DNA of 64,000 nt from a virus. Its lineage: Duplodnaviria; Caudoviricetes. The first letter of the stretch is position 1, and each line of letters opens with the position of its first letter. The notes below the pieces were generated by a model. The model was not told the DNA's origin and did not search any database. It saw only the letters and a program-made list of their open reading frames with translations. The DNA lies in IMG/VR virus record IMGVR_UViG_3300025674_000014. One strand, given 5' to 3'. Made by a program: the position numbers and the translations under genes. Of the stretch, positions 3,097 to 58,900 are shown one piece after another.

Positions 3097-3596
3097 CGTT
3101 TATGAGCGGTATTTATAATTTTTTTTGCTTCAGATTTACCCAACCATCCATTAATTTTTACATCTTTATCTTCAAGGTCTTTATAATGAGAAAAGAAATT
3201 AAATGTAGTTGAAACCCAATGTGGGTCTAGATCTTTTAGAGAACGATAATCCTTTACGTGAGAAACAGGTACCGTAATAATCTTAAAATCTTTATCACCA
3301 TTATCATCCATATCTAAAACAGCTATTGGATAAACTTCTACTAAAGTACCAGTTTTGATAGGTACGTTATTATAAACACAAACATCTAGAGGGTCATTAT
3401 CTAAAGCTAAAGTTTGAGGTACAAATCCATACGAACAGGTGTATCTCATACTACTGTAAAGACATCTGCTAAGTTTAAAGATACCTAATTGTTCATCGTA
3501 CTCATACTTGGCATTGGTATCTTTTTCAACTTCAATTATAGCATTTATCCTTAAAGGAGCATCTATACCTATTGGAATATCATTTACTAAATTCAT
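3075..3596 (-). CDS. ppa: family I inorganic pyrophosphatase
   Basis: AKYEYD, YGFVPQTL..DNDPLDV, D.G.KD.KII, FF..YKDLE. Confidence 0.92.
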   Translation of the reverse strand: MNLVNDIPIGIDAPLRINAIIEVEKDTNAKYEYDEQLGIFKLSRCLYSSMRYTCSYGFVPQTLALDNDPLDVCVYNNVPIKTGTLVEVYPIAVLDMDDNGDKDFKIITVPVSHVKDYRSLKDLDPHWVSTTFNFFSHYKDLEDKDVKINGWLGKSEAKKIINTAHKRWSSLQR

Positions 3597-4521
3597 TAAA
3601 ATAAATGTCTAAGAATTTTTTAGTTTCATCTGGTATTAAATCACTATTTAGAGTACAGCAATTTAACACCCACGATAAAGTATTTCTATAACCTATAATT
3701 TCTTTTTCTAAATTAGTAATTAAATCTTGCTCGTTTCTATTTTGATAAACCGATGCTTTATCAAATATAACTTGATTAGGTTTTATTTTGGTTTGAAGAT
3801 AATAACCACCCCAAATATCATCCATTCTACCTACATGAGGCCAAACAGCATAATGAGGTATAACATCTCTGGATAAAAATGTATTTTGAGAATTAAAAGG
3901 GTGAATATTTTCGCTAGTAAAGGGGAACAATCCTTTTTCAGAATTAAAATCACAATAAGGCTTTACTGTTAGTCTTGCCATTGCGTCAATATCAGGATCT
4001 CCATTCCAAAAATCAGCTTGCACTTTAACCTCTACTTCCTTATCTTGAAGTAAAATAGCTTTCTTTCTTTCAGGTACATAATCTAAAGGAAAACCTCTAT
4101 GCCAAATTTTATCATGATAAGACGTAGGTGAAATAGGATCAAAAACATAAGTGTTACCTCTATAATGGTTAATATTCACTTTTGTATTAACTTTAATATC
4201 AGACCCCCAATCATCATAAGGTATATTATCGTCATCAATTGTAGCAATAACTTTATTATTGCTTTCTTTATATGCTTCAACAAACCCAATGTTTCTTCTT
4301 TGAATAGATCTCCATCCTATACTATCACTAAGTTCTTTATATTTCTTTTCCTGATAGTCTGGGTGAAGGTAAGTAACACCAGCCATATCTTCGTAAAGCT
4401 TATGAGGTGTTTTAGTATCTCCTACTACATAAAAAGTCCAATCATTATTGAGAGCTAATTTAGCATACCTTTTAGTTGCTTCAGTAGGCTCGTTAATAGT
4501 TGTTGTTACAATGCTTAACAT
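3580..4521 (-). CDS. STELLO/RGP(GT75)-like glycosyltransferase or sugar mutase
   Basis: VVGDTKTP, RRNIGF..A, IATIDDDN (DxD), W.GDPDIDA, PFNSQNT, RMDDIWG. Confidence 0.65.
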   Translation of the reverse strand: MLSIVTTTINEPTEATKRYAKLALNNDWTFYVVGDTKTPHKLYEDMAGVTYLHPDYQEKKYKELSDSIGWRSIQRRNIGFVEAYKESNNKVIATIDDDNIPYDDWGSDIKVNTKVNINHYRGNTYVFDPISPTSYHDKIWHRGFPLDYVPERKKAILLQDKEVEVKVQADFWNGDPDIDAMARLTVKPYCDFNSEKGLFPFTSENIHPFNSQNTFLSRDVIPHYAVWPHVGRMDDIWGGYYLQTKIKPNQVIFDKASVYQNRNEQDLITNLEKEIIGYRNTLSWVLNCCTLNSDLIPDETKKFLDIYFNEFSK

Positions 4522-5318
4522 ATAAAATCTAGAATAAAGTTTTTAACTGTGTAATTATTAATCGCTAAATCATAAGTCTTTTCCACCATATCATGATAAG
4601 ACTCATAGTTGTTTAAAATTTCGTCTAAACGTTCTTTTAATTTACCTTCCTCAAAAGTAACAAAATGTTCATCCTTTACAAACCAAGGGTCCATATAATT
4701 ACTAAATTTTTCGCAACATAATATTAAACTCTTATTAAACGCTGCTTCAAATGATCTGCTCTTTAACTGAGCATAAGCTCGGGTGGAGTTATGAGTTACA
4801 GTTACCTTGGACTCGCTTATCAACTGCAATTTTTGTTTATATGTAACATTTGTATGTGTACCTCTAGAAAAAGAAGCTAGCACATACTTACCGTAACTCA
4901 TACCTCCTAAAGTGTTAAAGATTTCCGGTACCGGTGGTGTATTATTGTGATTACCAGTATAACAGGCATCATAAATTTTTTCTGATGGAGCTAAAATCTT
5001 TTCTGGTAAATATTTTTCGTTCAAAGGAAAGTAAACATATTTTCTATTAGGCTTCTTTTCAGCAGCAGTTTTACTAATAGTAAGCATCTCATTACAATAA
5101 GGTGCAATAAGAGTTTCCGTACCATCTAAATCATCATATACCTCTTCAAAATGACAGCAAATTTTTTTACCAGTAACATTTGAATTTTTCATTGCGTCCC
5201 AATCACACCCAATGTAAACGTGAATATCATCAGAAACCAAATCCTTATATTGTTCAAAATCCCAATATCTTAAAGGGTCTTCCCAATAATTTTTATTTAA
5301 ATTGTTATGTACTATCAT
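4515..5318 (-). CDS. GT-B glycosyltransferase (CgeB/Glyco_trans_1_2-like)
   Basis: C-terminal L..SK...N...KSR.FEAA...LIL...F..DEHFV.F....L. Confidence 0.55.
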   Translation of the reverse strand: MIVHNNLNKNYWEDPLRYWDFEQYKDLVSDDIHVYIGCDWDAMKNSNVTGKKICCHFEEVYDDLDGTETLIAPYCNEMLTISKTAAEKKPNRKYVYFPLNEKYLPEKILAPSEKIYDACYTGNHNNTPPVPEIFNTLGGMSYGKYVLASFSRGTHTNVTYKQKLQLISESKVTVTHNSTRAYAQLKSRSFEAAFNKSLILCCEKFSNYMDPWFVKDEHFVTFEEGKLKERLDEILNNYESYHDMVEKTYDLAINNYTVKNFILDFIC

Positions 5319-5950
5319 AATGGGTACACTATTACATATCCTTGATCTCTATAAACCTTTTTAAAGTCATGTGTCTTACCAAAAGTTTCATATAACATTG
5401 AAAGATCTCTTCCATCAGGGTTAATATCATTTAAAGTTATGTTATGTCCGTGAGCTTTACAATGCTCATCAAAAGAAGGTCTCTTTTTGTCCTCCCCGGC
5501 CTTTATTGATTCGTAAACCCATAAATCATCACAAATCAAAACATCTTTATACTTACCTAACCTTTTTGATATTAGATTTATTTCATCTTCTAAAGGTAAA
5601 TTTAAATTAAAATCTAATTTTTTAATTTCATCATATGATTTTAATTTAGCATCTGCACCAGGAAAATGAGCATCTAACCAAAATAAAATATTACTATCAA
5701 TAGTAGGTAAAATTTCTTCTAATACAGAGGTTGAATGACCTGTAATTATTTCTACTCTCGATTCATTTCTGAATCTATGTCTAGCTTTTTCTGCTACCGT
5801 TGGTTCTATTTCTATAGATATGATTCTATCAAAGTCATATCTTAATGCTTGAACAATTCCATCTCCATATAAAGTACCGGTTTCAATAAACACAGATGCT
5901 TTATTAAGTTGTATTAGTTCATTTAAATTAAAAATTGTTAAATTACCCAT
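5315..5950 (-). CDS. class I SAM-dependent methyltransferase
   Basis: FIETGT..GDG, ISIEI, G.S..VL, FWLDAHF, I.DD. Confidence 0.65.
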   Translation of the reverse strand: MGNLTIFNLNELIQLNKASVFIETGTLYGDGIVQALRYDFDRIISIEIEPTVAEKARHRFRNESRVEIITGHSTSVLEEILPTIDSNILFWLDAHFPGADAKLKSYDEIKKLDFNLNLPLEDEINLISKRLGKYKDVLICDDLWVYESIKAGEDKKRPSFDEHCKAHGHNITLNDINPDGRDLSMLYETFGKTHDFKKVYRDQGYVIVYPL

Positions 5951-5951
5951 T

Positions 5952-6644
5952 TTACCATTCAGTTAATTCCCATTTTACATTTTTAGGAATATGTTTTATT
6001 ACATTAAAATTAGCAGGATTAAACCTACTATATAATTTAAATTTAGATGCTTTAAGGTCAAGTTTTTCCATCAAATACATAAAAGATGTATCGACCATAT
6101 AAATTTCAGATGCATTTTCTAATACTTTACACCAATCAAATAAGTTGTAGTTAGGTAATACTTTTACATCGATAATTTTTTTATTAGTTTCAACATTAAT
6201 TTGTCTTGCTGAATATTGAGGAGGAGAACCCACATTACAACTTCTTAAAATATATTCTTCATTATTAGGATTTAACTCATTATATAATTTTTCTTCTCTT
6301 TCATAATTTCTGAAAAAATCAAAATAATCTAATGCATCACTAGAATCAATGTTAGCTAAATCATATTTAGCTTGCATAGTATTATTATCATATTGAGGTT
6401 TGCCTACATCGGCATCTCTTAAATTTAAAATTTGTTTTTTATCATCTTGATCAACAAAATCATTAAATGAAGTAAATTTAAGTTTTGGAATTTTTATATA
6501 ATCTTTTATATAAGAGAACTCGTCTATCACCGGCCATTCAATTGTTTTAACATTTTTATCAAAGAAAGATATATAGTAAGCTATTTTTAAGCAATAAAAA
6601 ATATCACCTATACCAGCTGGTTGAAATATAATTACAGTTTCCAT
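5952..6644 (-). CDS. putative glycosyltransferase (GT9/GT-B-like)
   Basis: N-terminal QPAGIGDI; C-terminal W..VLENA..I..VDTSF..L; position inside glycan operon. Confidence 0.4.
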   Translation of the reverse strand: METVIIFQPAGIGDIFYCLKIAYYISFFDKNVKTIEWPVIDEFSYIKDYIKIPKLKFTSFNDFVDQDDKKQILNLRDADVGKPQYDNNTMQAKYDLANIDSSDALDYFDFFRNYEREEKLYNELNPNNEEYILRSCNVGSPPQYSARQINVETNKKIIDVKVLPNYNLFDWCKVLENASEIYMVDTSFMYLMEKLDLKASKFKLYSRFNPANFNVIKHIPKNVKWELTEW

Positions 6645-7459
6645 GAAAAACTATATTCCTTTACTTGTTCATAAGACATAGCTCTCATTTCTTCTAACAC
6701 TTGTCTATTTGTTTCCATGTACTTACACATTGCAGTACCTCTTTTTGCTCCTTCATGTACCATATGAAAGATAGGATCACCGTCATCTATAAATTTTACC
6801 GGGTTACCAAACTTAGCAAATCTTTCACGAGTTTCATCATCCTCAAAACCCCAGCCTTTAAATTTAGGATTAAATCCATTCATTGAAATAAAAGTATTTT
6901 TATTACCAGCTAACCCACCACCAGGACCACCCATATTATTACGTCTGAAAAGATTATTTTCATAAACATGGAAATTTTGATACTCATTCAAATATGTATT
7001 ATAGTCTAAAGTTTCTTTAAACTTTTCTATTAACGGTACTTTTACATCAATAAAATTAGGACCGGAAGGAATAAGAATCTTATTTTCGTTATTAATAAGA
7101 TCATAAGCTTTAACTATATCTTGTGGGTTAAAAATAGTATCAACATCATTAAAGAAAATAGTATCATATGAAGCATATTTTAACCCAAAGTTATATGCTG
7201 TCATTTTATTCCAATACTCTGTATCTTCTAATAATCTATGATGAAATATATTTTCATTACGGAAGATAGGTAAAGGTTTAAGATTATCTCTTTGCTCTTT
7301 ATCTATATATTGCTGAAGTACTAAGATTTCTAAATCAGTATAATTTTTTAAAAGATAATGAAGTAGAATATTTAAATTACGTTCTCTATCGTCATGATCT
7401 TTTTGATAAAAAATACAGAATGTAGATTTGATAGGAATCATGCCTTTATAATAGTCCAA
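6632..7459 (-). CDS. GT2/GT7-C (galactosyltransferase-like) glycosyltransferase
   Basis: RERNL, WNK..AYN.G, FNDVD, NGFN..F.GWG.ED.E. Confidence 0.7.
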   Translation of the reverse strand: MDYYKGMIPIKSTFCIFYQKDHDDRERNLNILLHYLLKNYTDLEILVLQQYIDKEQRDNLKPLPIFRNENIFHHRLLEDTEYWNKMTAYNFGLKYASYDTIFFNDVDTIFNPQDIVKAYDLINNENKILIPSGPNFIDVKVPLIEKFKETLDYNTYLNEYQNFHVYENNLFRRNNMGGPGGGLAGNKNTFISMNGFNPKFKGWGFEDDETRERFAKFGNPVKFIDDGDPIFHMVHEGAKRGTAMCKYMETNRQVLEEMRAMSYEQVKEYSFSWKL

Positions 7460-8223
7460 TTATCATCAAGTAAATCTTTATACTCTGGACCTTTTGGTCC
7501 AAACCAAGGTACCGGGGCTATTACTTTTTCTTTCTTTTTACCAAGATAACTTGACCATGCAGCAAAAGTACTATTACCCATAATAATAGAATCGCAACAA
7601 CTTAATGTATAAAAATCTTCTAACTCACTCTCACCATTCACGTAAATGTTATTATCATCAAATTTAAACTCTTTTGATACGGTTGCAAAGTCATCAGTTG
7701 CATATATGAAAACGTGATCTTTAAACATGTTTTTAGCTTTATCGTAAAAGCTTTTAGGAATGGAAGGGTGGATGTCAGGGTTATGAGTATAATCACCTCT
7801 TCTAACATGCACACCTACAACCTTTTTACCCGTTTTTTCTCTTAACTGATTAATTTTGTTTTCTATAGGAGAATATTTTTCTTCATCAAAACAAAACCAA
7901 TCATTAAGCTCATCTCTATACTTTGCAAAGTATTTGGGAGACTGATAATAACCTTCGTAAACAATGTTTTCATCTGTTTTTTCTATTTCGTTATATGTAA
8001 ATTGTGGTTCTTGTAAAAGTTTAAAGTCATCAGTTATTTTGCCGGTTTTAAAATTCTTATAAAAGTTATCTTTATACATTACCGGGTGTTTACCTTGACC
8101 ACAACCAAATCTTGCACTATAATCAATAAAGAACTCCTCATCATTATCTTTACAGTAAGCATTAATTGCAGCTATTTGATAAAGCTGATTACCTAAACCT
8201 CCTTTTAATAAAATAGTTTTCAT
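7438..8223 (-). CDS. GT11 alpha-1,2-fucosyltransferase-like
   Basis: GGLGNQLYQ, EGYYQS.KYF, GVHVRRGDY, ATDD, NSTFAAWSSYL. Confidence 0.85.
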   Translation of the reverse strand: MKTILLKGGLGNQLYQIAAINAYCKDNDEEFFIDYSARFGCGQGKHPVMYKDNFYKNFKTGKITDDFKLLQEPQFTYNEIEKTDENIVYEGYYQSPKYFAKYRDELNDWFCFDEEKYSPIENKINQLREKTGKKVVGVHVRRGDYTHNPDIHPSIPKSFYDKAKNMFKDHVFIYATDDFATVSKEFKFDDNNIYVNGESELEDFYTLSCCDSIIMGNSTFAAWSSYLGKKKEKVIAPVPWFGPKGPEYKDLLDDNWTIIKA

Positions 8224-9044
8224 TCAAATAAAAATTTATAATTTTCGAATATCCAATCTTCTGGTACCCTAAACTGTTCCACCTTGCTATAATTTTCTTC
8301 AACAGCAGAAAGACGCATATTGTAATCATCTTCTGACATATTACTTAAAACAAGATCAATATCATTTAATGAGTTAAAATAAATGATACCATTTTTGTTG
8401 AAAAATTTATTTACTGAATCTTTATCACCATAATAGATAGGAATAGTTTTTGTTGCAAAACAATCTAATAATTTTTCAGTCCAATAACCAGGTAAGATAG
8501 CATTTTCAATTGTAACTGAATACCTGTAATCATTAAGACCGTCTTCTTTATTTTCAAGCCTGTTAAGAACATATTCACCAAAACAATCCATTTGCTCACC
8601 ATTATAATCTATTACTTGGTGACGTAAACGATGACCTTCAGTCATTGCTTTTTCTGAAGCAAAGATACTGCACATTTTTGTTTTAGGTTTATCTACATAA
8701 TTTTTAATCCAACATCTACCATGAGGGTAATAAAGATAATTTTCACCTCTATCTATAAGATTTTGATCAAAGGTTAATACAAAGTCAAACAGTTTGTTAT
8801 TTTTTTCAATCCATGCATATGAATGAGGATGAATGCTTCTTGGTTCTAATATCCAAGCTACCTTTCTTTTTACACCTGAAGCCTTCTTTACGTCTTCAAG
8901 ACACATGTCAGTAATAAAACATACATCACTAACAGGTACGTTGTCTCTAACCCACTCAATGTATTTGCTTGGGGTATTAGCGCAAGATGATATATCGTGA
9001 CCAAAATTTCTATCTCTAATATTAACCTTCATTACATTTTCCAA
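8220..9044 (-). CDS. GT10 alpha-1,3/4-fucosyltransferase-like
   Basis: YRYSV.IEN....YWTEKL.DCF....IPIYYG. Confidence 0.7.
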   Translation of the reverse strand: MENVMKVNIRDRNFGHDISSCANTPSKYIEWVRDNVPVSDVCFITDMCLEDVKKASGVKRKVAWILEPRSIHPHSYAWIEKNNKLFDFVLTFDQNLIDRGENYLYYPHGRCWIKNYVDKPKTKMCSIFASEKAMTEGHRLRHQVIDYNGEQMDCFGEYVLNRLENKEDGLNDYRYSVTIENAILPGYWTEKLLDCFATKTIPIYYGDKDSVNKFFNKNGIIYFNSLNDIDLVLSNMSEDDYNMRLSAVEENYSKVEQFRVPEDWIFENYKFLFE

Positions 9045-9835
9045 GTGTTGCTGTATAGGTAGAGAAGTTTACTATCTATCTTTTCTACAAAGTTACATAA
9101 ATTGTTATTCTGTTTATAATATGGGTTAGTTTCTCTTTCAGCACTCTCATGATTAATATGAAACAGAGGCTTAAAGTCTCCCGTAAGTCTACATACCGTA
9201 TAACCCATTTTATTAAAACGAGCTAAAGTTTCGTTATCCTCATATCCCCAACCTAAGAAGTTAGGGTTAAAACCATTACAGTTAAAAATATTTCTTTTCT
9301 TAGTGACAAACCCACCACCAGGTGTACTTGTATGTCCTATATGAATTTTATCGTTTTGAAAATTAATTTGATTGTAATGATTAGGGTCTATTTGATCGCA
9401 AAGATAACCGTAATCTAAATTATCGATAAATTTATCTCTTACCCCTTCTTTTACACAAACAAAATGACCGTCGTTAGGTAAAATAATTTTCTTATTATCT
9501 TTAGTTAAAATATCTAAAGTTTCATTTATATGTTCAGGTCCAAAAATTACATCTACGTCATTAAAGATAAGATTTTCATAAAATGAATCTTTAACCCCTT
9601 CATTATAACCTTTCATTTTATTCCATGTATCTTGTAGATCAGGAAGTACTATATGTTTAAGGTTTTCATAAGAAGAGAAGTCTATATTACTTTCTAAATG
9701 TTTTTGTTCAGAAACTATAAACTCGAAATTTTCGTAATGTTTGTAGTAAAAGTTTAAAAGAGTTTTTAAATTTAACTCCCTATCTTCACTATCTTTACGA
9801 TAGAATACAATTACAGATGCATTTAAGTTAGTCAT
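9032..9835 (-). CDS. GT2/GT7-C glycosyltransferase (paralogue of 6632..7459)
   Basis: DRELNL, WNKM..YN.G, FNDVD, NGFNPNF.GWGYEDNE. Confidence 0.7.
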   Translation of the reverse strand: MTNLNASVIVFYRKDSEDRELNLKTLLNFYYKHYENFEFIVSEQKHLESNIDFSSYENLKHIVLPDLQDTWNKMKGYNEGVKDSFYENLIFNDVDVIFGPEHINETLDILTKDNKKIILPNDGHFVCVKEGVRDKFIDNLDYGYLCDQIDPNHYNQINFQNDKIHIGHTSTPGGGFVTKKRNIFNCNGFNPNFLGWGYEDNETLARFNKMGYTVCRLTGDFKPLFHINHESAERETNPYYKQNNNLCNFVEKIDSKLLYLYSNTWKM

Positions 9836-10053
9836 CAGTCAAACAAATCAGTAAAGAAACCTTTTCTTGGAATATCTTCTTTGTTCTTATCTGCTCTATC
9901 TTTTGCAACTTTTAGTTCTCTTTCAGTAAACAAAAGACAAAATTCATCATTAGATTGATTTTCAACCCAAATAGCAAGATATTCAGGATTAGCACCGAAT
10001 TTTCTTTCCTTGTTATCTACTCTGATAATTTTACCTGCTTTAACTTTGGTCAT
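9835..10053 (-). CDS. hypothetical protein, first gene of glycan operon
   Basis: 72 aa ORF directly after a promoter motif; 1-nt overlap with next gene. Confidence 0.55.
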   Translation of the reverse strand: MTKVKAGKIIRVDNKERKFGANPEYLAIWVENQSNDEFCLLFTERELKVAKDRADKNKEDIPRKGFFTDLFD

Positions 10054-10059: not shown

Positions 10060-10087
10060 ATTTTAGATTAAATACTTAAAATGTCCA
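10060..10087 (-). promoter_or_regulatory. early/middle-type promoter for 10053-3075 glycan operon
   Basis: TGGACA-N16-TAAAAT, ATG 6 nt later. Confidence 0.7.
10069..10074 (+). promoter_or_regulatory. gp55-type late promoter
   Basis: TAAATA, ATG 6 nt later. Confidence 0.7.
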
Positions 10088-10986
10088 CAGGAAACGACAA
10101 TTTCATTACGTTAGATAACATAGCGGAAATACAAGATATAGTCAATGGTGATTATATGTTTACTATTTCAAATGGAGTTATCTATAAATTAGATTTTCAA
10201 AATTTTATTATTAGTAAAGAAAATACCGATTTCTTTACGACAATAGATACATTATCTGCCCAGGTTGTAACTAATACCCAATCATTATGTTCTATAAATG
10301 CATATATTAACGATACAGTTAAACCTAATTTTGGTAAATTAGATTCAATTTATAATACTATAAACTCATTAAGTGGTAATTGGGAATCAACATACACTAC
10401 AATTAACTCTTTAAGTGCTCAAGCATTCTTACCTATAAGTACCGATTCTAATAATATACAAGCAGGTAGTATGGTATATTATGATGGTAGTAATTCAAGT
10501 TTTGTTACATTAGCGCCTGGTGGGATAGGAGAAATTTTAAATATACAAAGTAATGGTTTACCAGGGTTCTTAGATGTAGCAGAATCAAATATAGGGGCTA
10601 CTGTATTAACTACAGGTAGACATGAAATAACTCCAAATTTTAACGCCGGTGGAGAATATAATGTTACAGAAACATTTACCGTATTTTCATCTGATTCGAA
10701 ATCATATAAAAATGTAAGAATAGCAACTAACGTAAATACAGTAGAAGATGTATTTAGAAGTCAAATAGCAGGTAGAAGTGAAAAAAGAATAAGAACACAA
10801 GAAGTTACTTTAAGTGTTAATGGGACAAATATACCAACAACGAATGGTGTTGGGGTAATAGAATTATTAAACCCAAGTGAATCTATATTTATTACTTTTA
10901 AAAGTAGAGGTATAAGATCTAACTACAAATCTCTTCAATTTAATTTAAATTACAGTATTACTGGATTTGAACAAGTAAATAGTTAA
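10081..10986 (+). CDS. putative virion structural protein (fibre/collar-like)
   Basis: Late TAAATA promoter; repeated T(I/L)(D/N)(T/S)LS(A/G) and NWESTYTT motifs; S/T/N-rich. Confidence 0.45.
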   Translation: MSTGNDNFITLDNIAEIQDIVNGDYMFTISNGVIYKLDFQNFIISKENTDFFTTIDTLSAQVVTNTQSLCSINAYINDTVKPNFGKLDSIYNTINSLSGNWESTYTTINSLSAQAFLPISTDSNNIQAGSMVYYDGSNSSFVTLAPGGIGEILNIQSNGLPGFLDVAESNIGATVLTTGRHEITPNFNAGGEYNVTETFTVFSSDSKSYKNVRIATNVNTVEDVFRSQIAGRSEKRIRTQEVTLSVNGTNIPTTNGVGVIELLNPSESIFITFKSRGIRSNYKSLQFNLNYSITGFEQVNS

Positions 10987-11750: not shown

Positions 11751-12086
11751 TTATCTAGGAAACTCAATCCGGTCATCTAAATCTTCTCTCTTACCTTCAA
11801 ACTGCATCATTGACATAATATTCCAAGCTGCAGCTGCAAGATGGTCTTCACTAGTATCGCCAGCCCAGAACTGCATCATATGTCTTTGAGCACTATCATA
11901 CAATACTGAGAAAGGTTGACCCTTTAGCCAATTATTCTCTCCATAAGTTTCAGCACCGTCTAGATATCTTTTCATGACTCTATTCATTGCTGTGTGAGGC
12001 ATTAAGCTCATTCGAAGTTTACCCTTACGATCATCACGTTGGGCTCCTGTTGAAAACTGCGTATTGTTATCTGATTGTTTGTTCAT
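11751..12086 (-). CDS. dATP/dGTP diphosphohydrolase (DUF5664-like)
   Basis: GA.RD...GK....LMP..A...V....G...YG.NNW.KG.....S..RH......HLAAAAWN; likely start 12086 (ATGA overlap with thyX). Confidence 0.75.
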   Translation of the reverse strand: MNKQSDNNTQFSTGAQRDDRKGKLRMSLMPHTAMNRVMKRYLDGAETYGENNWLKGQPFSVLYDSAQRHMMQFWAGDTSEDHLAAAAWNIMSMMQFEGKREDLDDRIEFPR

Positions 12087-15172: not shown

Positions 15173-15177
15173 GCATA

Positions 15178-15183
15178 TATTTA
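15178..15183 (-). promoter_or_regulatory. gp55-type late promoter (15172-sodA-12796 operon)
   Basis: TAAATA, ATG 5 nt later. Confidence 0.7.
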
Positions 15184-16158: not shown

Positions 16159-16231
16159 TAATATATTTTAATGAAAAACTATAATAATCAATTATCTTAA
16201 TCAATTAGAAAATAGGTTAATATATTTGTTG

Positions 16232-48021: not shown

Positions 48022-48024
48022 ATA
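48019..48024 (+). promoter_or_regulatory. gp55-type late promoter (GT4-like gene)
   Basis: TAAATA using gene 46 stop codon, ATG 6 nt later. Confidence 0.6.
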
Positions 48025-48030
48025 ACTTTA

Positions 48031-49248: not shown

Positions 49249-49272
49249 TGATATATAGATTGTTCATATACT
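49245..49272 (+). promoter_or_regulatory. early/middle-type promoter for DNA polymerase
   Basis: TTGATG-N16-TATACT, ATG 6 nt later. Confidence 0.8.
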
Positions 49273-49278
49273 ATTTGT

Positions 49279-51867: not shown

Positions 51868-51868
51868 A

Positions 51869-52618
51869 ATGAATAGAAAAGGTATAATTTTAGCAGGTGG
51901 TAAAGGTACAAGACTTTACCCATTAACATACGGAACTACAAAAGCGTTATTACCGGTTTATGATAAACCGTTGATATATTACCCTATATCCACGTTGTTA
52001 AGCTTTGGTATTAATGAAATTTTAATTATAGGACCCACCTCTACACATCTAGAGCATATGGTAGAAGCTACTTACCCAATTAAAGATGTAACATTTAAGT
52101 ATGAGTTACAACCAGAACCTAAAGGATTAAGTGATGCATTTATTGTTGGTGAAAAGTTTATAGGTGATTCTAATGTAACATTAATACTTGGGGATAATAT
52201 ATTTGATGGTGTTTTTCCAACATTAAATCATAATAATACTATATATGGTGTTAAAGTTAAAGACCCTAAAGCATATGGTGTGTTAGATATCGACAATAAT
52301 TTAGGAATGGTTAAACGTATAGTCGAAAAACCCGAACACCCACCTTCAGATAAAGCAGTACCCGGTTTATATCATTTTGACAATACGTGTGTTGAAAAAG
52401 CTAAACAAGTTAAACCTTCTGCAAGAGGTGAAATAGAAATAACTGATCTAATAAACATGTATATTAATGAAGGTAAATTAACCGTTTCAATATTACCTGA
52501 TGATATGGCTTGGTTTGATTGTGGTACCCATGATCATCTTTTAGAAGCCGGTAATTACGTAAAAGCTATTCAAAATAGAACAGCTAGAGTGGTTGGAAAT
52601 ACTCAGATAATTTGTTAA
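51869..52618 (+). CDS. rmlA: glucose-1-phosphate thymidylyltransferase
   Basis: GIILAGGKGTRLYPLT, LLPVYDKPLIYYP, Q.EPKGL, LGDN, SARGE.EITD, WFDCGT. Confidence 0.9.
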   Translation: MNRKGIILAGGKGTRLYPLTYGTTKALLPVYDKPLIYYPISTLLSFGINEILIIGPTSTHLEHMVEATYPIKDVTFKYELQPEPKGLSDAFIVGEKFIGDSNVTLILGDNIFDGVFPTLNHNNTIYGVKVKDPKAYGVLDIDNNLGMVKRIVEKPEHPPSDKAVPGLYHFDNTCVEKAKQVKPSARGEIEITDLINMYINEGKLTVSILPDDMAWFDCGTHDHLLEAGNYVKAIQNRTARVVGNTQIIC

Positions 52619-52621
52619 TAT
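52594..52621 (+). promoter_or_regulatory. early/middle-type promoter for ORF 52628
   Basis: TGGAAA-N16-TAATAT, ATG 6 nt later. Confidence 0.65.
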
Positions 52622-52627
52622 AGTTAT

Positions 52628-52996
52628 ATGGCAGACAGTAAACTTAAAATTATTATCGATCAGGTAGGTCGCACTATTATTGGTGAAATCGTTGAAGATA
52701 ACGACACCGCTTATGTTCTTAAGAATGCAGCAACTATTTACGTGCAACCTAATGAATCGGGTCAGCTTCAAGTTCAAACAATTCCTCTATTCTTTAAAGA
52801 ATTTATTACTGAGGAAGGTCGTGAAAATGGAGTTCAATTCACGTTCAATAAAGCTACCGTTACCGATACTACTGCAGCTGACATCCTTGACGATAAGTTA
52901 GTTAATCAGTATCAAAAGATTGTTGATAATCTTGCATCACCAAGTGAGCCTGCTGCAGCACCAGAAGGTGATGTAGTTAAGCTATTTGATGAATAA
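52628..52996 (+). CDS. hypothetical protein (Sm-like fold possible)
   Basis: 122 aa; followed by strong terminator. Confidence 0.55.
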   Translation: MADSKLKIIIDQVGRTIIGEIVEDNDTAYVLKNAATIYVQPNESGQLQVQTIPLFFKEFITEEGRENGVQFTFNKATVTDTTAADILDDKLVNQYQKIVDNLASPSEPAAAPEGDVVKLFDE

Positions 52997-53010
52997 AAAA
53001 ATATTTTTTT

Positions 53011-53033
53011 AAGCCCCGAAAGGGGCTTTTTTT
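53011..53033 (+). terminator. rho-independent terminator (GAAA loop)
   Basis: aagcccc-gaaa-ggggc-ttttttt. Confidence 0.92.
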
Positions 53034-53038
53034 GTGTC

Positions 53039-53066
53039 TTGATATAATTAGGTTATATCTTATTAT
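53039..53066 (+). promoter_or_regulatory. early/middle-type promoter for uvsX
   Basis: TTGATA-N16-TATTAT, ATG 6 nt later. Confidence 0.8.
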
Positions 53067-53072
53067 AGGTTT

Positions 53073-54161
53073 ATGGCTAAAAAAGATGAATTAAATGATG
53101 TATTTGCAAGTTTAGATAAACTTAACCCTGAAGCTACTTACCTTAAAGATAATGCACTTTCAAATGTTGATACTTGGTATGATACCGGTTGTTATGCACT
53201 AAATGCTATCCTAGGTGGTAGTTGTCGTGAGGGTGGGGTTCCTAAAGGTAGGTTAGTTGGGTTTTCTGGACCATCACAATCTGGTAAGACATTTATTATT
53301 AATAAGATTTTAGGTAATGCACAGAAACAAGGTATTCACCCTGTTATTTTTGATACCGAGTTTGCTGTAGATGCTGCTAGTACTGAAGGGGTTGGGCTAG
53401 ATGCTAGTAGAACTAAGTATGTACCTGTATATACTGTTGAACAATGTCGTAATCAGGTAGTTGCCCTTTTGGATTCTATTAAGGAAAAAGGTTTACAAGG
53501 TAAGTTTATTATTTCTATTGATTCATTAGGTAACCTTGCATCCCAAAAAGAAGTAGATGATGCTGCTAAAGATAAGTCTGCAATGGATATGGGTCTTAGA
53601 GCTAAACAGCTTAAGTCCATGATGCGTATTCTTACTTATAAGGCAGGTGCAGCTGGTTGTACCATTCTATTCAGTAATCATACCTATGACGATCCATCTG
53701 CTTTGATGCCTTCATTGATTAAGCAAGCAGCTGGTGGTAGTGGGCCACAGTATATGGCTTCCATTCTATGTCAGCTTGCTAAGAAAAATGAACGTCAAGA
53801 TGCAAGTAACGATGAAGACGAAATTCTACCTGAAGCTCGTAACTATTCTGGTACCACTCTAAGGTTTCTAACTACTAAGAATCGTTTTGTACCGCCTCTA
53901 CTACAGGCTGAGATTTATCTTAACTATAAATCAGGTCTTGATAGGTATAGTGGTGTTAAAGATATGGCTGTTAATCATGGTGTACTAACTCAAACAGGAT
54001 CAACCTTTCAGATTAACATTGATAGTGAAGATGGTAAACGTAAAGTAGGTGATAAAATCGGTTATTACAAGAATTGGCGTAAAGATGAAGATCTTTGGGA
54101 AAACTATATTATACCAGAATTGGATAAAAAGTTGAAATCCGCCTATAAGTACGGTAAATAG
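53073..54161 (+). CDS. uvsX: RecA-like recombinase UvsX
   Basis: DTG.YALNAILG, GPSQSGKT, FDTE, IDSLGNL, NHTY, GG.G..Y, KNR. Confidence 0.92.
   Translation: MAKKDELNDVFASLDKLNPEATYLKDNALSNVDTWYDTGCYALNAILGGSCREGGVPKGRLVGFSGPSQSGKTFIINKILGNAQKQGIHPVIFDTEFAVDAASTEGVGLDASRTKYVPVYTVEQCRNQVVALLDSIKEKGLQGKFIISIDSLGNLASQKEVDDAAKDKSAMDMGLRAKQLKSMMRILTYKAGAAGCTILFSNHTYDDPSALMPSLIKQAAGGSGPQYMASILCQLAKKNERQDASNDEDEILPEARNYSGTTLRFLTTKNRFVPPLLQAEIYLNYKSGLDRYSGVKDMAVNHGVLTQTGSTFQINIDSEDGKRKVGDKIGYYKNWRKDEDLWENYIIPELDKKLKSAYKYGK
54155..54160 (+). promoter_or_regulatory. gp55-type late promoter (carbamoyltransferase)
   Basis: TAAATA, ATG 7 nt later. Confidence 0.6.
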
Positions 54162-54167
54162 CCTTAT

Positions 54168-55769
54168 ATGGCTAACATCGCAATCTACGGCTCGCATAAT
54201 GGCGCTATTGCCTTGGAAAATAACGGTGAATATCACGTTATTGAATTTGAACGTTTTTTTAATGTAAAAAATATTGGTCTAGCACAATACAAGCCTCTTC
54301 GTTATAGAGAAGAAGCTGTTTATGCAATGTTAGACTACATTGATAAGGAACTAGGATTTAAAGCTCCTTTCGATAACATGATTCACATTAATACTGAATG
54401 TGTTCATGACGATATTACTTACAGTTACAAGGATTATATTCCTGCTAAGAACGTTTATGAAGGTTGGCACCATCATGCACATGCAAGTGGATCCTTCTAT
54501 CAATCTGATTTTAAACAGGCCTTAATTTTTAGTTTCGACGGCGGTGGTAATGATGGTTTTTTCAACATCTTTTTAGCCGATAGAAAAAATGGTGTTACAT
54601 ATCTTGATAAAACCAACCCCGCCGATCGAACTAAATACGACTTCGACTTTGGGTTCCCATATATGTGTTTTGCACACTTTTGCAAAGACATTAAACAGGA
54701 ATGGATTTCAGATGGTAACCTAGTATACAGTGGTAAGATCATGGGACTCTGTAACTTTGGTAAGAGCAGAGATGAATGGTTACCTCACTTTAAGAAATTT
54801 TATTATGCTAAACCAGATGGTGAAAATTATATTAGATTCTTAAAAGAGTATATTGGAGATCCTTGTGGTTTGGTGTTTGATGAAAACAATAGACTTGAAG
54901 GTCAGTTAAGTTGGGACGTTGCAGCTACATCTCAAAAGGCTTTTGAAGAGTGCTTTTATGAAGTAGCTAAGCCTTATTTAGACAAATATGAGTTACCTAT
55001 TATTATTACTGGTGGGTGTGGTCTTAACATATTACTTAGCACTGATCTACGGCAGCGTTATCCTGAACGGGGTGTCTTCGTGGCTCCTAACACTAATGAT
55101 TGTGGAATTGCTGTTGGGTTATTGGCCGGTTTTAATAAACCCGATACTCCTATTGATATTACATACGGTGGTACGGAACTAATCGATAAAAATACATACC
55201 CTGCTTGGATTGAAAGTAACGTTGCCAAGCCAGTTACATTTAATGCTATTGTTAGTGAACTATGTAGTGGTAAAATCTTTGGAGTTGCAAGAGGTAGGTG
55301 TGAACACGGCCCTAGAGCTCTTGGTAACAGGTCAATTATCTGTAACCCAGCCTTCCCTGAGATGAAAGATATTCTTAACCATAAAGTTAAGCATAGGGAA
55401 TGGTACAGACCATTTGCCCCGGTATGTAGACTAGAAGATGCGTCTAAGTACTTTGAATGGGAAGGAGAATCAAGGCACATGTTATATTGTCCAAGGGTAA
55501 GACCTGAATGGCAAGATAAGCTTTCATCTATTACCCATATTGATGGTACTGCAAGACTTCAAACAGTAACAAGAGAACAAAATGAATGGTTATATGACCT
55601 TCTTACTGAGTTTGAAAAGAAAGCAGGTCATGGGGTTCTTCTCAATACTTCATTTAATATTGCAGGTAAACCAATTCTCAATACTATTGCCGATGCTATG
55701 TGGGTGTTAGAACACTCACAAATGGATTATCTCATTATTGAAGATTTTTACTATGGTAAACATTGGTAA
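54168..55769 (+). CDS. NodU/CmcH-family carbamoyltransferase
   Basis: SHN, E.ERF...K, HH.AHA..SF, DGGG, GKIMGL, GG..LN, P..ND.G, G..E.GPRALGNRSI, K.RE.YRPFAP, DGT.R.QTV, LNTSFN. Confidence 0.92.
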   Translation: MANIAIYGSHNGAIALENNGEYHVIEFERFFNVKNIGLAQYKPLRYREEAVYAMLDYIDKELGFKAPFDNMIHINTECVHDDITYSYKDYIPAKNVYEGWHHHAHASGSFYQSDFKQALIFSFDGGGNDGFFNIFLADRKNGVTYLDKTNPADRTKYDFDFGFPYMCFAHFCKDIKQEWISDGNLVYSGKIMGLCNFGKSRDEWLPHFKKFYYAKPDGENYIRFLKEYIGDPCGLVFDENNRLEGQLSWDVAATSQKAFEECFYEVAKPYLDKYELPIIITGGCGLNILLSTDLRQRYPERGVFVAPNTNDCGIAVGLLAGFNKPDTPIDITYGGTELIDKNTYPAWIESNVAKPVTFNAIVSELCSGKIFGVARGRCEHGPRALGNRSIICNPAFPEMKDILNHKVKHREWYRPFAPVCRLEDASKYFEWEGESRHMLYCPRVRPEWQDKLSSITHIDGTARLQTVTREQNEWLYDLLTEFEKKAGHGVLLNTSFNIAGKPILNTIADAMWVLEHSQMDYLIIEDFYYGKHW

Positions 55770-55781
55770 TAGTTCTATAAT
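55754..55781 (+). promoter_or_regulatory. early/middle-type promoter for queC
   Basis: TGGTAA-N16-TATAAT, ATG 7 nt later. Confidence 0.7.
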
Positions 55782-55788
55782 ATAGCAT

Positions 55789-56586
55789 ATGAGTGAAAGA
55801 AAACTACGTAGAGCTGTAATGCCATTTAGTGGTGGTATGGATAGTGCTGTTATGCTTAACATGGCTCAAACAGCACATGATGAATTATATTGTATTACTT
55901 TTGATTACGGTCAACGTCATAAGCGTGAGATCGAATGTGCTAAAACTCAAATTGAACATAATGAAGTAAGGTCATTTAGTCACTCGTTTGAGTTTCATCG
56001 TATCTATCATAAGATTATCGATGTGTCATTTATTAAGGAACTTGCAACTACTAGTTCACTTACTAATACTGATATTGATAACCCTGATGTTAAAGATATG
56101 GTTGGTGAAGCTCAACCAGCTAGTTATGTACCTTTTAGGAACCAGTTGTTTCTAAGTATTGCATGTGCTTATGCTGAGTCTATTGGTGCTGATACCGTAT
56201 ATCATGGTGCAACCCAAGTTGATAGTCTTGCTGGTTACTGGGATGGTAGTCCTGAATTCCAAGATAGTTTTAATAAACTGATTAGTCTTAATAGACAAAA
56301 TCAAATTGTAGTTAAATGTCCATTGATTAACCTTAGCAAGAAAGACATTATTCTATCTGGTATTAGTAACAGGGTAGATTTTGGTGAAACATATACGTGT
56401 TATAGTGGTGATGAAATTGCTGATGCAACTACACCAAGTAGTGCACTACGTATTAAGGGTTTTTGTGATGCTGGTTATATTGACCCTCAACCATATAAGC
56501 AAGATCTTACATCATTATGGGAAGAGCATGACTGTAAGCCATGCCCTACTGGGTTCTTTTTACAAAAAGGAGGTACTAGAGGTTAA
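55789..56586 (+). CDS. queC: 7-cyano-7-deazaguanine synthase QueC, degenerate Zn site
   Basis: FSGGMDS, F.YGQRH..E, SSLT, YVPFRN..FLS.A, Y.D....F, P....SK..I, TY.CY. Confidence 0.88.
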   Translation: MSERKLRRAVMPFSGGMDSAVMLNMAQTAHDELYCITFDYGQRHKREIECAKTQIEHNEVRSFSHSFEFHRIYHKIIDVSFIKELATTSSLTNTDIDNPDVKDMVGEAQPASYVPFRNQLFLSIACAYAESIGADTVYHGATQVDSLAGYWDGSPEFQDSFNKLISLNRQNQIVVKCPLINLSKKDIILSGISNRVDFGETYTCYSGDEIADATTPSSALRIKGFCDAGYIDPQPYKQDLTSLWEEHDCKPCPTGFFLQKGGTRG

Positions 56587-57167
56587 TAGTCCTCTAAATC
56601 GTCGTCCTGATATTCGGACATATCATCATCAGGGCGATCATCAATTTCATCATACTCCGTGTCCATAGAAGCGGTGGGATCAACATAATCAGCAGTAGTT
56701 GGTTCCACCGCTTCGCCACCTTTAATGTTAATTTCGTCTAAGTAACCATCAGCTATCATTCCACCTAAAAGTACTTCTGCTTCCTTTTTATCCATTCCTG
56801 TTTTAGTAAGGAACTCCATTATGTCTTTAGCTTTTGCTGAATCGTCTGCTTCAACATATCTTACAACATCACGTTGAGCTGTGTTTAATCTTTCTTCGTA
56901 CGATTTATCAGCAACTTTAAATTCTCTATTACCAAGTTTAACCTTATTACTGGTTTTTTCTTTTCGTTGTCTTGTTGCTCTTGATCTTACACCAGAACCT
57001 TTACCTTTTAACCTCATCATCATTTCATAATAAGACTCTTTTCTTTCTTCACCGGTGTCAGGATCTACGACAGTTTTACGTTCTCTATCTTTGTATTGTT
57101 TTTTACGCCCTTCTTCAATGGACTGCATATACGATTCAAATAGAAATTGATTTTCTCTGTCTTTCAT
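56583..57167 (-). CDS. hypothetical late protein (basic N-half, acidic C-tail)
   Basis: TAAATA 6 nt upstream; MKDRENQFLFESYMQSIEEG. Confidence 0.6.
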   Translation of the reverse strand: MKDRENQFLFESYMQSIEEGRKKQYKDRERKTVVDPDTGEERKESYYEMMMRLKGKGSGVRSRATRQRKEKTSNKVKLGNREFKVADKSYEERLNTAQRDVVRYVEADDSAKAKDIMEFLTKTGMDKKEAEVLLGGMIADGYLDEINIKGGEAVEPTTADYVDPTASMDTEYDEIDDRPDDDMSEYQDDDLEDY

Positions 57168-57173
57168 TATTAT

Positions 57174-57179
57174 TATTTA
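57174..57179 (-). promoter_or_regulatory. gp55-type late promoter
   Basis: TAAATA, ATG 6 nt later. Confidence 0.7.
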
Positions 57180-57183
57180 ATAT

Positions 57184-57795
57184 ATGTGTGCAATATTTGG
57201 TACAAAAAATAAAGAACAATTTGATTCATTATATGAACTAAATCATAAACGTGGTGGGTTTGCATTCAGTGCAGTTTTTAGGAACAAAGAAGGTAAGTTT
57301 ATGACTACTAAAGGTCGTAAATATATCAAACCACTAAGTAATGCAAAGTATATTCTAGCCCATGACCAAGCCCCTACTTCTTCAGTTCGGTTGTATGATT
57401 ACCGTACTTCTCACCCGTTTGTTTGTGGTGAGTGGGTGGTGGCACATAATGGTGTATTAACTAATCATAAGGAACTGTTAAAAGAACACAATTGTGATGT
57501 TGATAGTAGTTATATACCCGCTCTTCTCGATAAGGAGACTAAAGGAGAAGTAACTTCTATTGAAAATGTGTGTAGTTTATTAGAAGGTACATTTGCTTGT
57601 TGGATAGTTAATAGAACAAGTGGTAACATTTACTTGGTTAAACAAGGTAGTACGCTATTTTATGATGGTGCTACATTTTCATCGGTAAAATTTACTGGTA
57701 GTTATGCATTGAGAGACGGGGTTGTTTATCTTGTTGAAGATACAATTGCTCCAATTGGTAAGTTTAAAAGTAACAGTCCTTTTGCATTGATATAG
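57184..57795 (+). CDS. class II (Ntn) glutamine amidotransferase
   Basis: N-terminal MC.IFG, RG, AH..APT, HPF, VAHNG, DS. Confidence 0.8.
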   Translation: MCAIFGTKNKEQFDSLYELNHKRGGFAFSAVFRNKEGKFMTTKGRKYIKPLSNAKYILAHDQAPTSSVRLYDYRTSHPFVCGEWVVAHNGVLTNHKELLKEHNCDVDSSYIPALLDKETKGEVTSIENVCSLLEGTFACWIVNRTSGNIYLVKQGSTLFYDGATFSSVKFTGSYALRDGVVYLVEDTIAPIGKFKSNSPFALI

Positions 57796-57820
57796 ACAGC
57801 TACTTTATAAAATATTTTAT

Positions 57821-58900
57821 ATGAAAAGAGCACTCGTATGCGGCGGAGGTGGTTTCATTGGAAGTCACCTCGTTTCCCGTCTTAAAGAAGAAGGATACTG
57901 GGTTAGAGCAGTAGACCTTAAGGAACCGGAATTTTCAACAACCAAAGCTGATGAATTTGTTGGTGGTGATTTAACTGACTATAACTTTGTTCGTGAAGTA
58001 ATTGTAACTGGTGATTATTTCCATAAACCACCTATTCAATATAGAGAGCAGTTCGATGAAATCTATCAACTTGCTGCTGATATGGGTGGCGCTGGTTATA
58101 TTTTTACTGGTGAAAACGATGCTAATGTTATGCAGAACTCAGCATCTATTAACTTAAATATATTAAAGGCTGTAGATGAGTCGAACCTGTTTTTTCGATC
58201 TGATTGGTATCATGAGGCACGTTTAGAACACACTTCTTATAAACCTATTGATACTAAGATATTCTACAGTAGCTCAGCGTGTATGTACCCTGAACATAAC
58301 CAATTAGACCCGGAGAACCCTAACTGTGAAGAAAGTTCCGCATACCCGGCCAACCCAGATAGTGAATATGGATGGGAAAAGCTATTTAGCGAAAGGTTAT
58401 ACCTTGCTTATAATCGGAATAGGGGTATACCCGTTCGTATTGCACGTTTTCACAATATTTTCGGACCTGAAGGAACATGGAAAGGTGGAAGAGAAAAGGC
58501 CCCAGCAGCATTATGTAGAAAGTTTGCCGAAGCCGAATCAGGAGACACCATAGAAGTATGGGGTGACGGTGAACAAACACGGTCTTTCTTATATGTTCAT
58601 GAGTGTGTTGAGGGTATCCGTCGTTTAATGGAATCAGACTTTACCGGTCCAGTTAATATTGGTTCAGATGAGATGGTAACTATTAATAAAATGGTAGAAT
58701 ACCTTAAATCCATTAGCGGTAAATCACTAAAACCAGTACATAAGTTAGATGCACCAACAGGAGTGCGTGGAAGAAACAGTGATAATAAGCTTATCCAAGA
58801 AAAGCTTGGTTGGTCACCTAATTTTTCCTTAAAAGATGGGTTACAACTTACCTATAGATGGATTCTTGAACAAGTAAAACTTGATAAACAAAAGGCATAA
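57821..58900 (+). CDS. GDP-mannose 3,5-epimerase-like NAD-dependent epimerase
   Basis: GGGGFIGSH, QLAADMGGAG.I, YSSSAC.YP, YG.EKL, RFHNIFGP.G.W.GGREKAPAA.CRK. Confidence 0.85.
   Translation: MKRALVCGGGGFIGSHLVSRLKEEGYWVRAVDLKEPEFSTTKADEFVGGDLTDYNFVREVIVTGDYFHKPPIQYREQFDEIYQLAADMGGAGYIFTGENDANVMQNSASINLNILKAVDESNLFFRSDWYHEARLEHTSYKPIDTKIFYSSSACMYPEHNQLDPENPNCEESSAYPANPDSEYGWEKLFSERLYLAYNRNRGIPVRIARFHNIFGPEGTWKGGREKAPAALCRKFAEAESGDTIEVWGDGEQTRSFLYVHECVEGIRRLMESDFTGPVNIGSDEMVTINKMVEYLKSISGKSLKPVHKLDAPTGVRGRNSDNKLIQEKLGWSPNFSLKDGLQLTYRWILEQVKLDKQKA

Follow-up and report, generated by a model that had tools for sequence, protein, structure and literature searches.

The 64-kb stretch of DNA analysed here, called the window below (IMG/VR virus record IMGVR_UViG_3300025674_000014), contains the core replication and recombination genes of a T4-like phage and carries a large set of glycan-building genes. 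New here are the swapping of two islands of glycosyltransferase (GT) genes between strains, a further GT gene kept throughout the clade, the absence of membrane-spanning proteins from the window and a mucin-like protein encoded near it in a close relative. We propose, with a confidence that stops a little short of even, that these genes form a soluble system glycosylating the phage's own mucin-like virion proteins, the candidate acceptor.

Between positions 3580 and 58900 we count 16 securely glycan-related genes and about 6 probable ones (Table 1). The preliminary description of this DNA had reported more than 20, and an arsenal of that size is borne out: the 22 genes make up 20.2 kb, or 36% of the interval, and are scattered in at least 11 places among replication genes. 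Secure calls are Pfam matches above the curated cut-off, plus support from the PDB, paralogy, fold models and PHROG families. The window holds 10 secure and 3 probable GT genes, and more than ten clustered GT or nucleoside diphosphate (NDP)-sugar genes represent the GT10, GT11, GT2, GT4, Gmd and epimerase families. Three enzymes are of fucosyltransferase type (GT10, GT11 and a NodZ-like candidate). No GDP-fucose synthase was found in the window, though an epimerase forming GDP-L-galactose, GDP-mannose 3,5-epimerase (GME), is present.

The window is densely packed with genes, has a GC content of about 31% and yielded no tRNA gene. Homologues of gp43, gp41, gp32, gp46, gp47, UvsX, UvsY, a UvsW-like helicase and gp55 make up a T4-like core, and PhoH, ThyX and a SegE-like endonuclease are also encoded. 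A megablast search with 10 kb against 50,697 phage genomes returned no nucleotide-level relative, and gp43 is 30-32% identical to the best listed matches among sequenced phages, mostly cyanophages. IMG/VR contains 66 related loci, whose gp43 identity ranges from 30% to 100%. Because of the missing megablast match, the low gp43 identity and the relatives found in IMG/VR, the phage is, to judge by these comparisons, a member of an uncultured aquatic T4-like lineage divergent from sequenced phages. The same megablast and gp43 results, together with the absence of photosynthesis genes from the window, do not place it in the Kyanoviridae or with a cyanobacterial host.

Start-anchored scans revealed two promoter classes. 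The sigma-70-like class, defined as TTGAnn-N16-18-TAnnnT ending 4-15 nucleotides (nt) before ATG, was found at 22 of 79 gene starts and at 62 of 2344 other ATGs (2.6%; p 2e-15, about 10-fold). The TAAATA class, in which this hexamer ends 4-9 nt before ATG, was found at 11 of the 79 starts and at 10 of the 2344 other ATGs (0.4%; Fisher p 6e-12, 33-fold). A generic sigma-70 scan was not enriched (87 sites against 110 expected from shuffles), so that only the start-anchored test is informative. The sigma-70-like class precedes gp43, uvsX, gp41, uvsW and uvsY, the first genes of both GT islands (the 72-residue open reading frame, or ORF, in island 1 and the DUF1796 gene in island 2) and GME, whose orthologues have TTGATA-N17-TATAAT upstream. 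The Gmd-like gene has a sigma-70-like promoter with a 15-nt spacer (TTGATT-N15-TAAAAT), conserved in orthologues. This class includes the genes of donor supply, namely the Gmd-like gene, GME, RmlA behind gp43 and the KdsC-like trio behind uvsY. RmlA starts 1 nt after gp43, and the unit ends just upstream of uvsX at a terminator-like stem-loop with a T-run.

The TAAATA class precedes the sulfotransferase, the GT-B gene between gp46 and gp43 and the carbamoyltransferase (6, 6 and 7 nt from the end of the motif to ATG), as well as eight non-glycan genes. The HtrL/YibB-family gene next to gp47 is ambiguous, with a TAAATA at -30. The preliminary description had placed the glycan genes in two temporal programmes. 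All its class assignments were reproduced and the split into two promoter classes is real, but its "early" class is more safely called early/middle, because sigma-70-like promoters are common to gp43, uvsX and gp41.

Several observations bear on the nature of the TAAATA class. The window encodes a homologue of gp55, the T4-type late sigma factor; tblastn finds it in 1870 phage records, and the matches listed are annotated as late sigma factor. The only full T4 consensus in the window, TATAAATA, stands at the head of the operon encoding a virion structural protein (29181-30590; phrog_1645, E 7e-70). The sulfotransferase TAAATA is kept at equal distance in six orthologues (51-98% protein identity), and that of the GT-B gene in about 26 orthologues (59-98% identity) with differing flanking bases. 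The carbamoyltransferase motif overlaps the last codons of uvsX. These read GGT-AAA-TAx, creating TAAATA, in 11 of 11 loci whose carbamoyltransferase gene begins 4-8 nt downstream, and the synonymous GGG-AAG-TAA in 2 of 2 loci where it does not; one of the latter has a separate TAAATA further on, ahead of the carbamoyltransferase. Judged from these alignments, TAAATA is conserved in relatives beyond coding constraint. Given this conservation, the gp55 homologue and the consensus heading a structural operon, it is credible that TAAATA sites are T4-type late promoters, and we infer the early/middle and late timing of the two classes from the T4 paradigm and the gp55 homologue. In the distant relatives L068 and L069, gp23 is preceded by a Shine-Dalgarno leader with no TAAATA at -6, which cannot calibrate the late motif of this subclade. 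Seawater metatranscriptome contigs from four studies match 47501-57400 with 90-99% likeness and at low depth, and are uninformative on transcription, starts or timing.

The covariation of the last uvsX codons (window 54150-54170; L014, L031 and 11 other loci) looks like a promoter within coding sequence. Comparison of the region upstream of the GT-B gene (window 48000-48031) with L038, L039, L054, L066 and others shows TAAATA in the near subclade and the TTGAnn-N16-18-TATAnT type in distant subclades, so that one orthologue may have switched temporal class between subclades. At 33 of the 79 gene starts (for example those at 38889, 41326 and 53073, of the sulfotransferase and of the GT-B gene) a promoter-like motif ends 4-15 nt, mostly 5-9 nt, before the start codon, and a Shine-Dalgarno motif is not evident upstream of most starts of the window; together these suggest leaderless or near-leaderless mRNAs.

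Comparison of the relatives separates core genes from exchangeable ones. The GT-B gene lies between gp46 and gp43 in every relative covering that junction (38-98% identity) and on this evidence belongs to the core genes shared by the clade. The carbamoyltransferase, GME, both HtrL genes, the sulfotransferase and the KdsC-like trio occur in the near subclade only (gp43 at least 80% identical), and RmlA is restricted to relatives with gp43 at least 89% identical. The GT between gp47 and gp46 evolves fast (31-58% identity in relatives). Both GT islands are hypervariable and exchanged between strains with near-identical flanks. Around island 2, taken from the Gmd-like gene to the DUF1796 gene, the flanks are 98-99% identical in L083, yet four different ORFs and a GT fusion 46% identical to that of the window lie between them; L085 and L089 carry other gene sets and L088 has no island. 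Between flanks 85-100% identical, L079-L081 have island 1 in reordered, diverged (33-71% identity) or shortened form, and its contents are reshuffled or absent in the close relatives L079-L082. The replacement ORFs belong to GT2, GT7C, GT25, GT34, DUF5672, methyltransferase and 2OG-oxygenase families. The inorganic pyrophosphatase downstream of island 1 is kept at 69-98% identity in relatives and may pull NDP-sugar formation. Divergent from island 1 and 27 nt away is a late-type Ser/Thr/Asn-rich ORF of 301 residues (10081-10986, +), which varies strongly between strains that are otherwise near-identical (97, 79, 62 and 40% identity) and may encode a fibre or receptor-binding protein.

We searched the 79 ORFs of the window for transmembrane segments and found none, if a marginal stretch in one kinase-like protein is set aside. 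Nor does the window encode a flippase, polymerase, ligase, priming phosphoglycosyltransferase or oligosaccharyltransferase. With no membrane enzymes there, chain assembly would take place in the cytoplasm, directly on the final acceptor or on a lipid intermediate of the host. A candidate acceptor is found in L078, a relative whose shared genes are 95-100% identical to those of the window. Its 1,337-residue protein, encoded 1.8-5.8 kb left of the window and about 5 kb from island 1, contains 24% Thr and has three stretches of 60-69% Thr, Ser and Pro between lectin-like domains. The L078 segment around it (12984-20517, from 0 to 6.9 kb left of the window) also encodes a 542-residue helicase-like protein, whose C-terminal part is the window ORF 2-613, a 265-residue protein and a further large ORF; this segment is the edge of a structural module adjoining island 1.

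We propose that the toolkit consists of soluble cytoplasmic enzymes only. Early/middle promoters, which also drive replication genes, would provide donor supply through the GDP-sugar dehydratase, GME, the RmlA-type and a second nucleotidyltransferase and the KdsC-like phosphatase, and would express the two GT islands with their strain-variable content. After these donors and variable transferases, gp55-type late promoters would express a conserved set, the clade-wide GT-B, the sulfotransferase with its HtrL-family enzyme and the O-carbamoyltransferase, alongside the structural proteins. The chain would be assembled on Thr/Pro-rich mucin-like virion proteins and form a strain-specific sugar coat. 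It is probably rich in fucose or L-galactose-type sugars, because three fucosyltransferase-type enzymes, two beta4GalT-like enzymes and GME are encoded; it is also probably sulfated and perhaps carbamoylated. Several small proteins behind TAAATA (among those at 14552-15172, 24292-24741, 31125-31427, 37138-37641 and 56583-57167) begin in a similar way, with a short amphipathic N-terminus whose last residue is Glu (MKFDQAIKE, for example) and which resembles the T4 capsid-targeting sequence. The late glycan enzymes have no such N-termini, and for this reason should act in the cell late in infection and not be packaged. Phage virion glycosylation has a precedent in mycobacteriophages (Freeman et al. 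2023, as cited in PMC12619734). A fuller picture, which we regard as rather doubtful, is a "phage glycocalyx" in which giant Thr/Pro-rich virion fibres would carry a mucin-type O-glycan, rich in fucose or L-galactose, sulfated and carbamoylated. It would be started by the late GT-B and diversified by strain-specific GT cassettes in a marine Gram-negative host, under diversifying selection like that on O-antigens.

Several points weigh against virion proteins as the acceptor. The pairing of enzymes and acceptor is drawn from sequence. The late assignment is motif-based, and only one TAAATA case in the window heads a known structural gene. No Thr/Pro-rich protein was found in 105-127 kb fragments of three distant relatives that keep the core GT-B gene. 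Most GT genes have the early/middle promoter type and lie among replication rather than structural genes; three units carry late-type promoters, and island 1 lies about 5 kb from the mucin-like gene. Finally, GT10, GT11, HtrL and KdsC-like enzymes are classical families of lipopolysaccharide (LPS) or lipo-oligosaccharide (LOS) synthesis. We therefore rank virion proteins as the best guess for the acceptor, then the host envelope, then DNA.

The promoter type of most GT genes and their families, with Gmd-type genes also typical of LPS or LOS loci, would suit host envelope remodelling, and we consider that explanation possible though on the unlikely side. Working on the cytoplasmic side of the inner membrane, and relying on the host for lipid-linked acceptors and for export, the enzymes would extend or alter the LPS core, lipo-oligosaccharide or capsule, and the changed receptors would result in superinfection exclusion, fewer progeny lost on debris or avoidance of grazers. 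Homologous clusters of T4-like cyanophages have been read as LPS or cell-wall modification (PMC1079782, PMC12801897), and the strain-level swapping of cassettes resembles O-antigen loci. However, the window has no gene for a membrane-associated enzyme, priming transferase, flippase or ligase, so that such a system would depend fully on the host, and the conserved late-promoter subset fits poorly with an altered surface, since the new glycans must arrive at the outer membrane some time ahead of lysis. A 253-residue protein (28375-29136, +) bears a clear signal peptide and has a beta-rich sequence like that of porins; it is 26-54% identical in relatives and may be an outer-membrane protein made during infection.

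That part of the set modifies phage DNA or its precursors is unlikely in our view. Chiefly the carbamoyltransferase, possibly also the GT-B or some early GTs, would then act atop 7-deazaguanine or hydroxymethyl-pyrimidine and protect against nucleases. A phage NodU/TobZ-type enzyme is a proven carbamoyltransferase of 5-hydroxymethylcytosine (5hmC; PMC8670742), the domain is clearly present here, and by analogy the enzyme could equally act on a nucleobase. Its gene adjoins QueC and glutamine amidotransferase genes, and the window also contains homologues of FolE, QueD and QueE and a dGTP diphosphohydrolase-like gene. GT-B enzymes act on DNA in T4 itself, and the GT-B gene keeps its place between gp46 and gp43 in every relative covering the junction. 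Against this, ThyX is the only thymidylate synthase of the window, and searches of the window and of five partial relatives turned up neither a hydroxymethylase (PF00303) nor TGT/DpdA, the relatives being fragments and so giving weak evidence; a hydroxymethyl-pyrimidine synthase, as in T4-type DNA glycosylation, is thus missing from these sequences. In the published study the carbamoyltransferase and PF00303 co-occur only in modified contigs, and in unmodified ones it is flanked by, for example, group 1 glycosyltransferases; residues at TobZ positions 408, 421 and 423 are diagnostic for the 5hmC enzyme (PMC8670742). The late-type promoters of the carbamoyltransferase and GT-B genes differ from the early expression expected of DNA-protecting enzymes, and GT10, GT11 and beta4GalT-like enzymes use sugar acceptors. 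The model of the GT-B protein comes closest to GT4 enzymes, not to GT63/GT72-type early enzymes, and resembles the cyanophage "DNA alpha-GT" weakly (TM 0.48, rank 38).

The preQ0 (7-deazaguanine) pathway is dispersed over 11751-12092, 21583-22332, 23284-23967, 26452-27108, 55789-56586 and 57184-57795. The set comprises FolE, QueD, QueE-like, QueC, a class-II glutamine amidotransferase and a dATP/dGTP diphosphohydrolase-like gene, and QueC and the amidotransferase are conserved clade-wide. At the matching position of L088 (9017-10060), the type I GTP cyclohydrolase FolE2 (PF02649, E 1.3e-72 among the island ORFs scanned) apparently replaces FolE, a non-orthologous displacement as it appears; the hit is assigned to this ORF by inference, on the grounds of ORF length and because L088 gave no FolE match.

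Least probable, though close behind, is a mixed bag of auxiliary genes, each acquired on its own and aimed at different targets (host metabolites, small molecules or different glycoconjugates), in which the promoter split would reflect insertion sites: the scatter over at least 11 places, the restriction of RmlA and the HAD trio to the closest relatives and the fast turnover of the islands are all compatible with it, but the families fit together, in that GDP-sugar supply is matched by three fucosyltransferase-type enzymes and the sulfotransferase is coupled in translation to a GT, and the promoter motifs are conserved in orthologues.

Several gene labels of the preliminary description could be made more precise. 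GME, so labelled there, is unambiguous. The gene labelled Gmd/Rmd does encode a GDP-sugar short-chain dehydrogenase/reductase (SDR), but its nearest PDB entry is a GDP-heptose 4,6-dehydratase (7us5, E 4.7e-59), followed by Rmd and then Gmd. The two genes labelled GT7-C have that Pfam domain, and their nearest PDB structures are beta-1,4-galactosyltransferases. The label GT9, given to two genes, was not confirmed; Pfam returned no Glyco_transf_9 match even at E up to 5. One of them (16232-17137) looks like a NodZ/FUT8-type fucosyltransferase instead. The other is the 640-residue GT fusion of island 2: its N-terminal 450 residues gave no Pfam match and nothing relevant in the PDB, by single sequence or profile, the single-sequence fold of the protein is unusable (pLDDT 35.7) and PF01075 (GT9) is carried by 3 of 60 homologues, which leaves its GT9 half as a possible lead only. 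For the core GT-B, Pfam barely registers a match (E 0.005) and the family profile found none among PDB sequences; only the fold search is informative, giving a confident GT-B fold that Foldseek matches to GT4 enzymes, with the first 38 residues disordered. The sulfotransferase and HtrL paralogue genes overlap by 4 nt. Homologue searches with the 230-residue ORF of island 1 and the radical SAM protein of island 2 yielded many uncharacterised relatives and no function. The latter has an uncharacterised N-terminal part of 240 residues, some of its homologues are labelled AslB-like or MoaA-like, and one 219-kb contig carries homologues of both this 558-residue protein and the GT fusion. The SegE-type GIY-YIG homing endonuclease (38241-38708, -; E 4.4e-34) lies just before the uvsY promoter region.

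Table 1. Glycan-related genes and landmark genes of the window.
Feature	Position	Strand	Evidence or remark
Inorganic pyrophosphatase	3075-3596	-	downstream end of island 1; Pfam Pyrophosphatase E 1.1e-50
Island 1	3580-10053	-	one co-directional block; sigma-70-like promoter TGGACA-N16-TAAAAT at 10060-10087
STELLO/RGP-like	3580-4521	-	lead only; Atlas 0.99
CgeB-like GT-B	4515-5318	-	Pfam Glyco_trans_1_2
RMNT_CmcI-like methyltransferase	5315-5950	-	lead only; E 0.015
230-residue ORF, island 1	5952-6644	-	many uncharacterised homologues
GT7C/GT2, beta4GalT-like	6632-7459	-	Pfam Glyco_transf_7C plus GT2; PDB beta4GalT
GT11	7438-8223	-	Pfam E 3.6e-23
GT10	8220-9044	-	Pfam
GT7C/GT2, beta4GalT-like	9032-9835	-	Pfam Glyco_transf_7C plus GT2; PDB beta4GalT
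72-residue ORF, island 1		-	first gene from promoter
GDP-sugar 4,6-dehydratase/reductase-type SDR (Gmd/Rmd-like)	15181-16158	-	Pfam GDP_Man_Dehyd E 6.5e-64; own promoter
Island 2	16232-21561	-	promoter TTGAAA-N16-TAAATT at 21567-21594
NodZ/FUT8-type fucosyltransferase candidate	16232-17137	-	lead only; Atlas 0.96, TM 0.66
558-residue radical SAM protein	17143-18819	-	inside island 2
640-residue fusion, C-terminal GT4 domain	18806-20728	-	Pfam Glycos_transf_1, C-terminal part only
DUF1796 protein	20725-21561	-	first in island 2; Pfam
HtrL-family paralogue	24752-25819	-	paralogy to HtrL gene, E 7e-21
Sulfotransferase	25816-26400	-	Pfam Sulfotransfer_2 E 1.9e-11
UvsY	38889
HAD, KdsC/KDN-9-phosphate phosphatase-like	39287-39817	+	Pfam and NCBIfam; trio 39287-41289 co-directional behind uvsY, promoter TTGACA-N16-CATAAT
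Nucleotidyltransferase-like (NTP_transf_3)	39768-40496	+	lead only; Pfam below cut-off
GT2-like	40480-41289	+	lead only; Atlas 0.92
UvsW-type helicase	41326
gp55 homologue, T4-type late sigma factor	42802-43284	+	tblastn and clade-wide conservation
HtrL/YibB-family glycosyltransferase-like	43281-44324	-	Pfam HtrL_YibB E 3.4e-11
gp47	44359
Glycosyltransferase between gp47 and gp46	45408-46190	+	PHROG families 1579 and 2456
gp46	46219
GT-B (GT4-like) glycosyltransferase between gp46 and gp43	48031-49248	+	model pLDDT 84.8; Foldseek prob 1.0
gp43 DNA polymerase	49279
RmlA-type sugar-1-phosphate nucleotidyltransferase	51869-52618	+	Pfam NTP_transferase E 1.2e-52; TIGR01207 257 bits
UvsX	53073
NodU/TobZ-type O-carbamoyltransferase	54168-55769	+	Pfam E 1.1e-61; PDB TobZ E 4.9e-42
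GDP-mannose 3,5-epimerase (GME)	57821-58900	+	PDB 2c59 (Arabidopsis enzyme) E 1.4e-91
gp41	58921
gp32	62231

Sugar-gene arsenals of marine T4-like phages have been known since 2005 and their target was never established. The present case is unusually testable, owing to its conserved late-promoter core, strain-swappable islands, all-soluble enzymes and mucin-like candidate acceptor. If virion glycosylation is true, glycosylation of phage particles would extend from actinobacteriophages to abundant marine myoviruses, and the reading of "LPS" auxiliary genes in viromes would change.

In giant viruses, the capsid glycans of chloroviruses and the fibril glycans of Mimivirus and Megavirinae are made by autonomous glycosylation, in eukaryotic hosts and on a different virion architecture. 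Gmd-type donor synthesis and many soluble GTs operate there without the host secretory machinery, glycans cover fibres of the virion surface and cluster content varies between strains. The likeness to our phage lies in the donor genes, the many soluble GTs and the strain-variable cluster content, and the homology shown here is that of shared enzyme superfamilies. The preliminary description had framed breadth of this kind as typical of giant viruses, which leaves out published T4-like cyanophages with 22-24 such genes. Cyanophage P-SSM2 has 24 "LPS" genes in two clusters (PMC1079782), and S-SCSM2R has 22 genes including 13 glycosyltransferases, which its authors state may be the highest count met with in a marine phage (PMC12801897). 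Because of these arsenals and the 10 secure and 3 probable GTs found here, giant viruses are not alone in having a repertoire this broad.

Mycobacteriophages resemble our phage in encoding soluble GTs, whose action on the phage's own structural proteins in the cytoplasm is only proposed here. They have one to few GTs beside structural genes, and C-terminal glycans of their capsid and tail-tube proteins have been demonstrated (Freeman et al. 2023, Cell Host Microbe, as cited in PMC12619734 and PMC12801897), whereas our phage has about 13 GTs, mostly among replication genes, and is known from its genes alone. The 5hmC carbamoyltransferase of uncultured phages (PMC8670742) is, like ours, a phage NodU/TobZ-type two-domain enzyme; it differs in co-occurring with a thymidylate-synthase-type hydroxymethylase, none of which was found in the window.

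The closest parallels are the cyanophage clusters. They too are built on a T4-like myovirus backbone, distribute more than 20 sugar genes over several clusters and include the families GT10, GT11, GT2, GT1/4, Gmd, NDP-sugar epimerases and Kdo-pathway genes. Cyanophage ACG-2014f carries a Gmd-epimerase-GT11-GT6-GT25 cluster, and the GT11 protein of the window matches 101 phage records at about 30% identity, almost all of them cyanophages or uncultured marine viruses. Our phage differs in belonging to another, uncultured lineage (gp43 32% identical) and in lacking photosynthesis genes within the window. It adds GME, a Sulfotransfer_2 enzyme, HtrL paralogues and a NodU-type carbamoyltransferase. 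In contrast to the cyanophage clusters, a conserved subset lies behind late-type promoters and the glycan genes are interleaved with replication genes, cassettes are exchanged at strain level, and a mucin-like candidate acceptor is encoded nearby in a near-identical relative.

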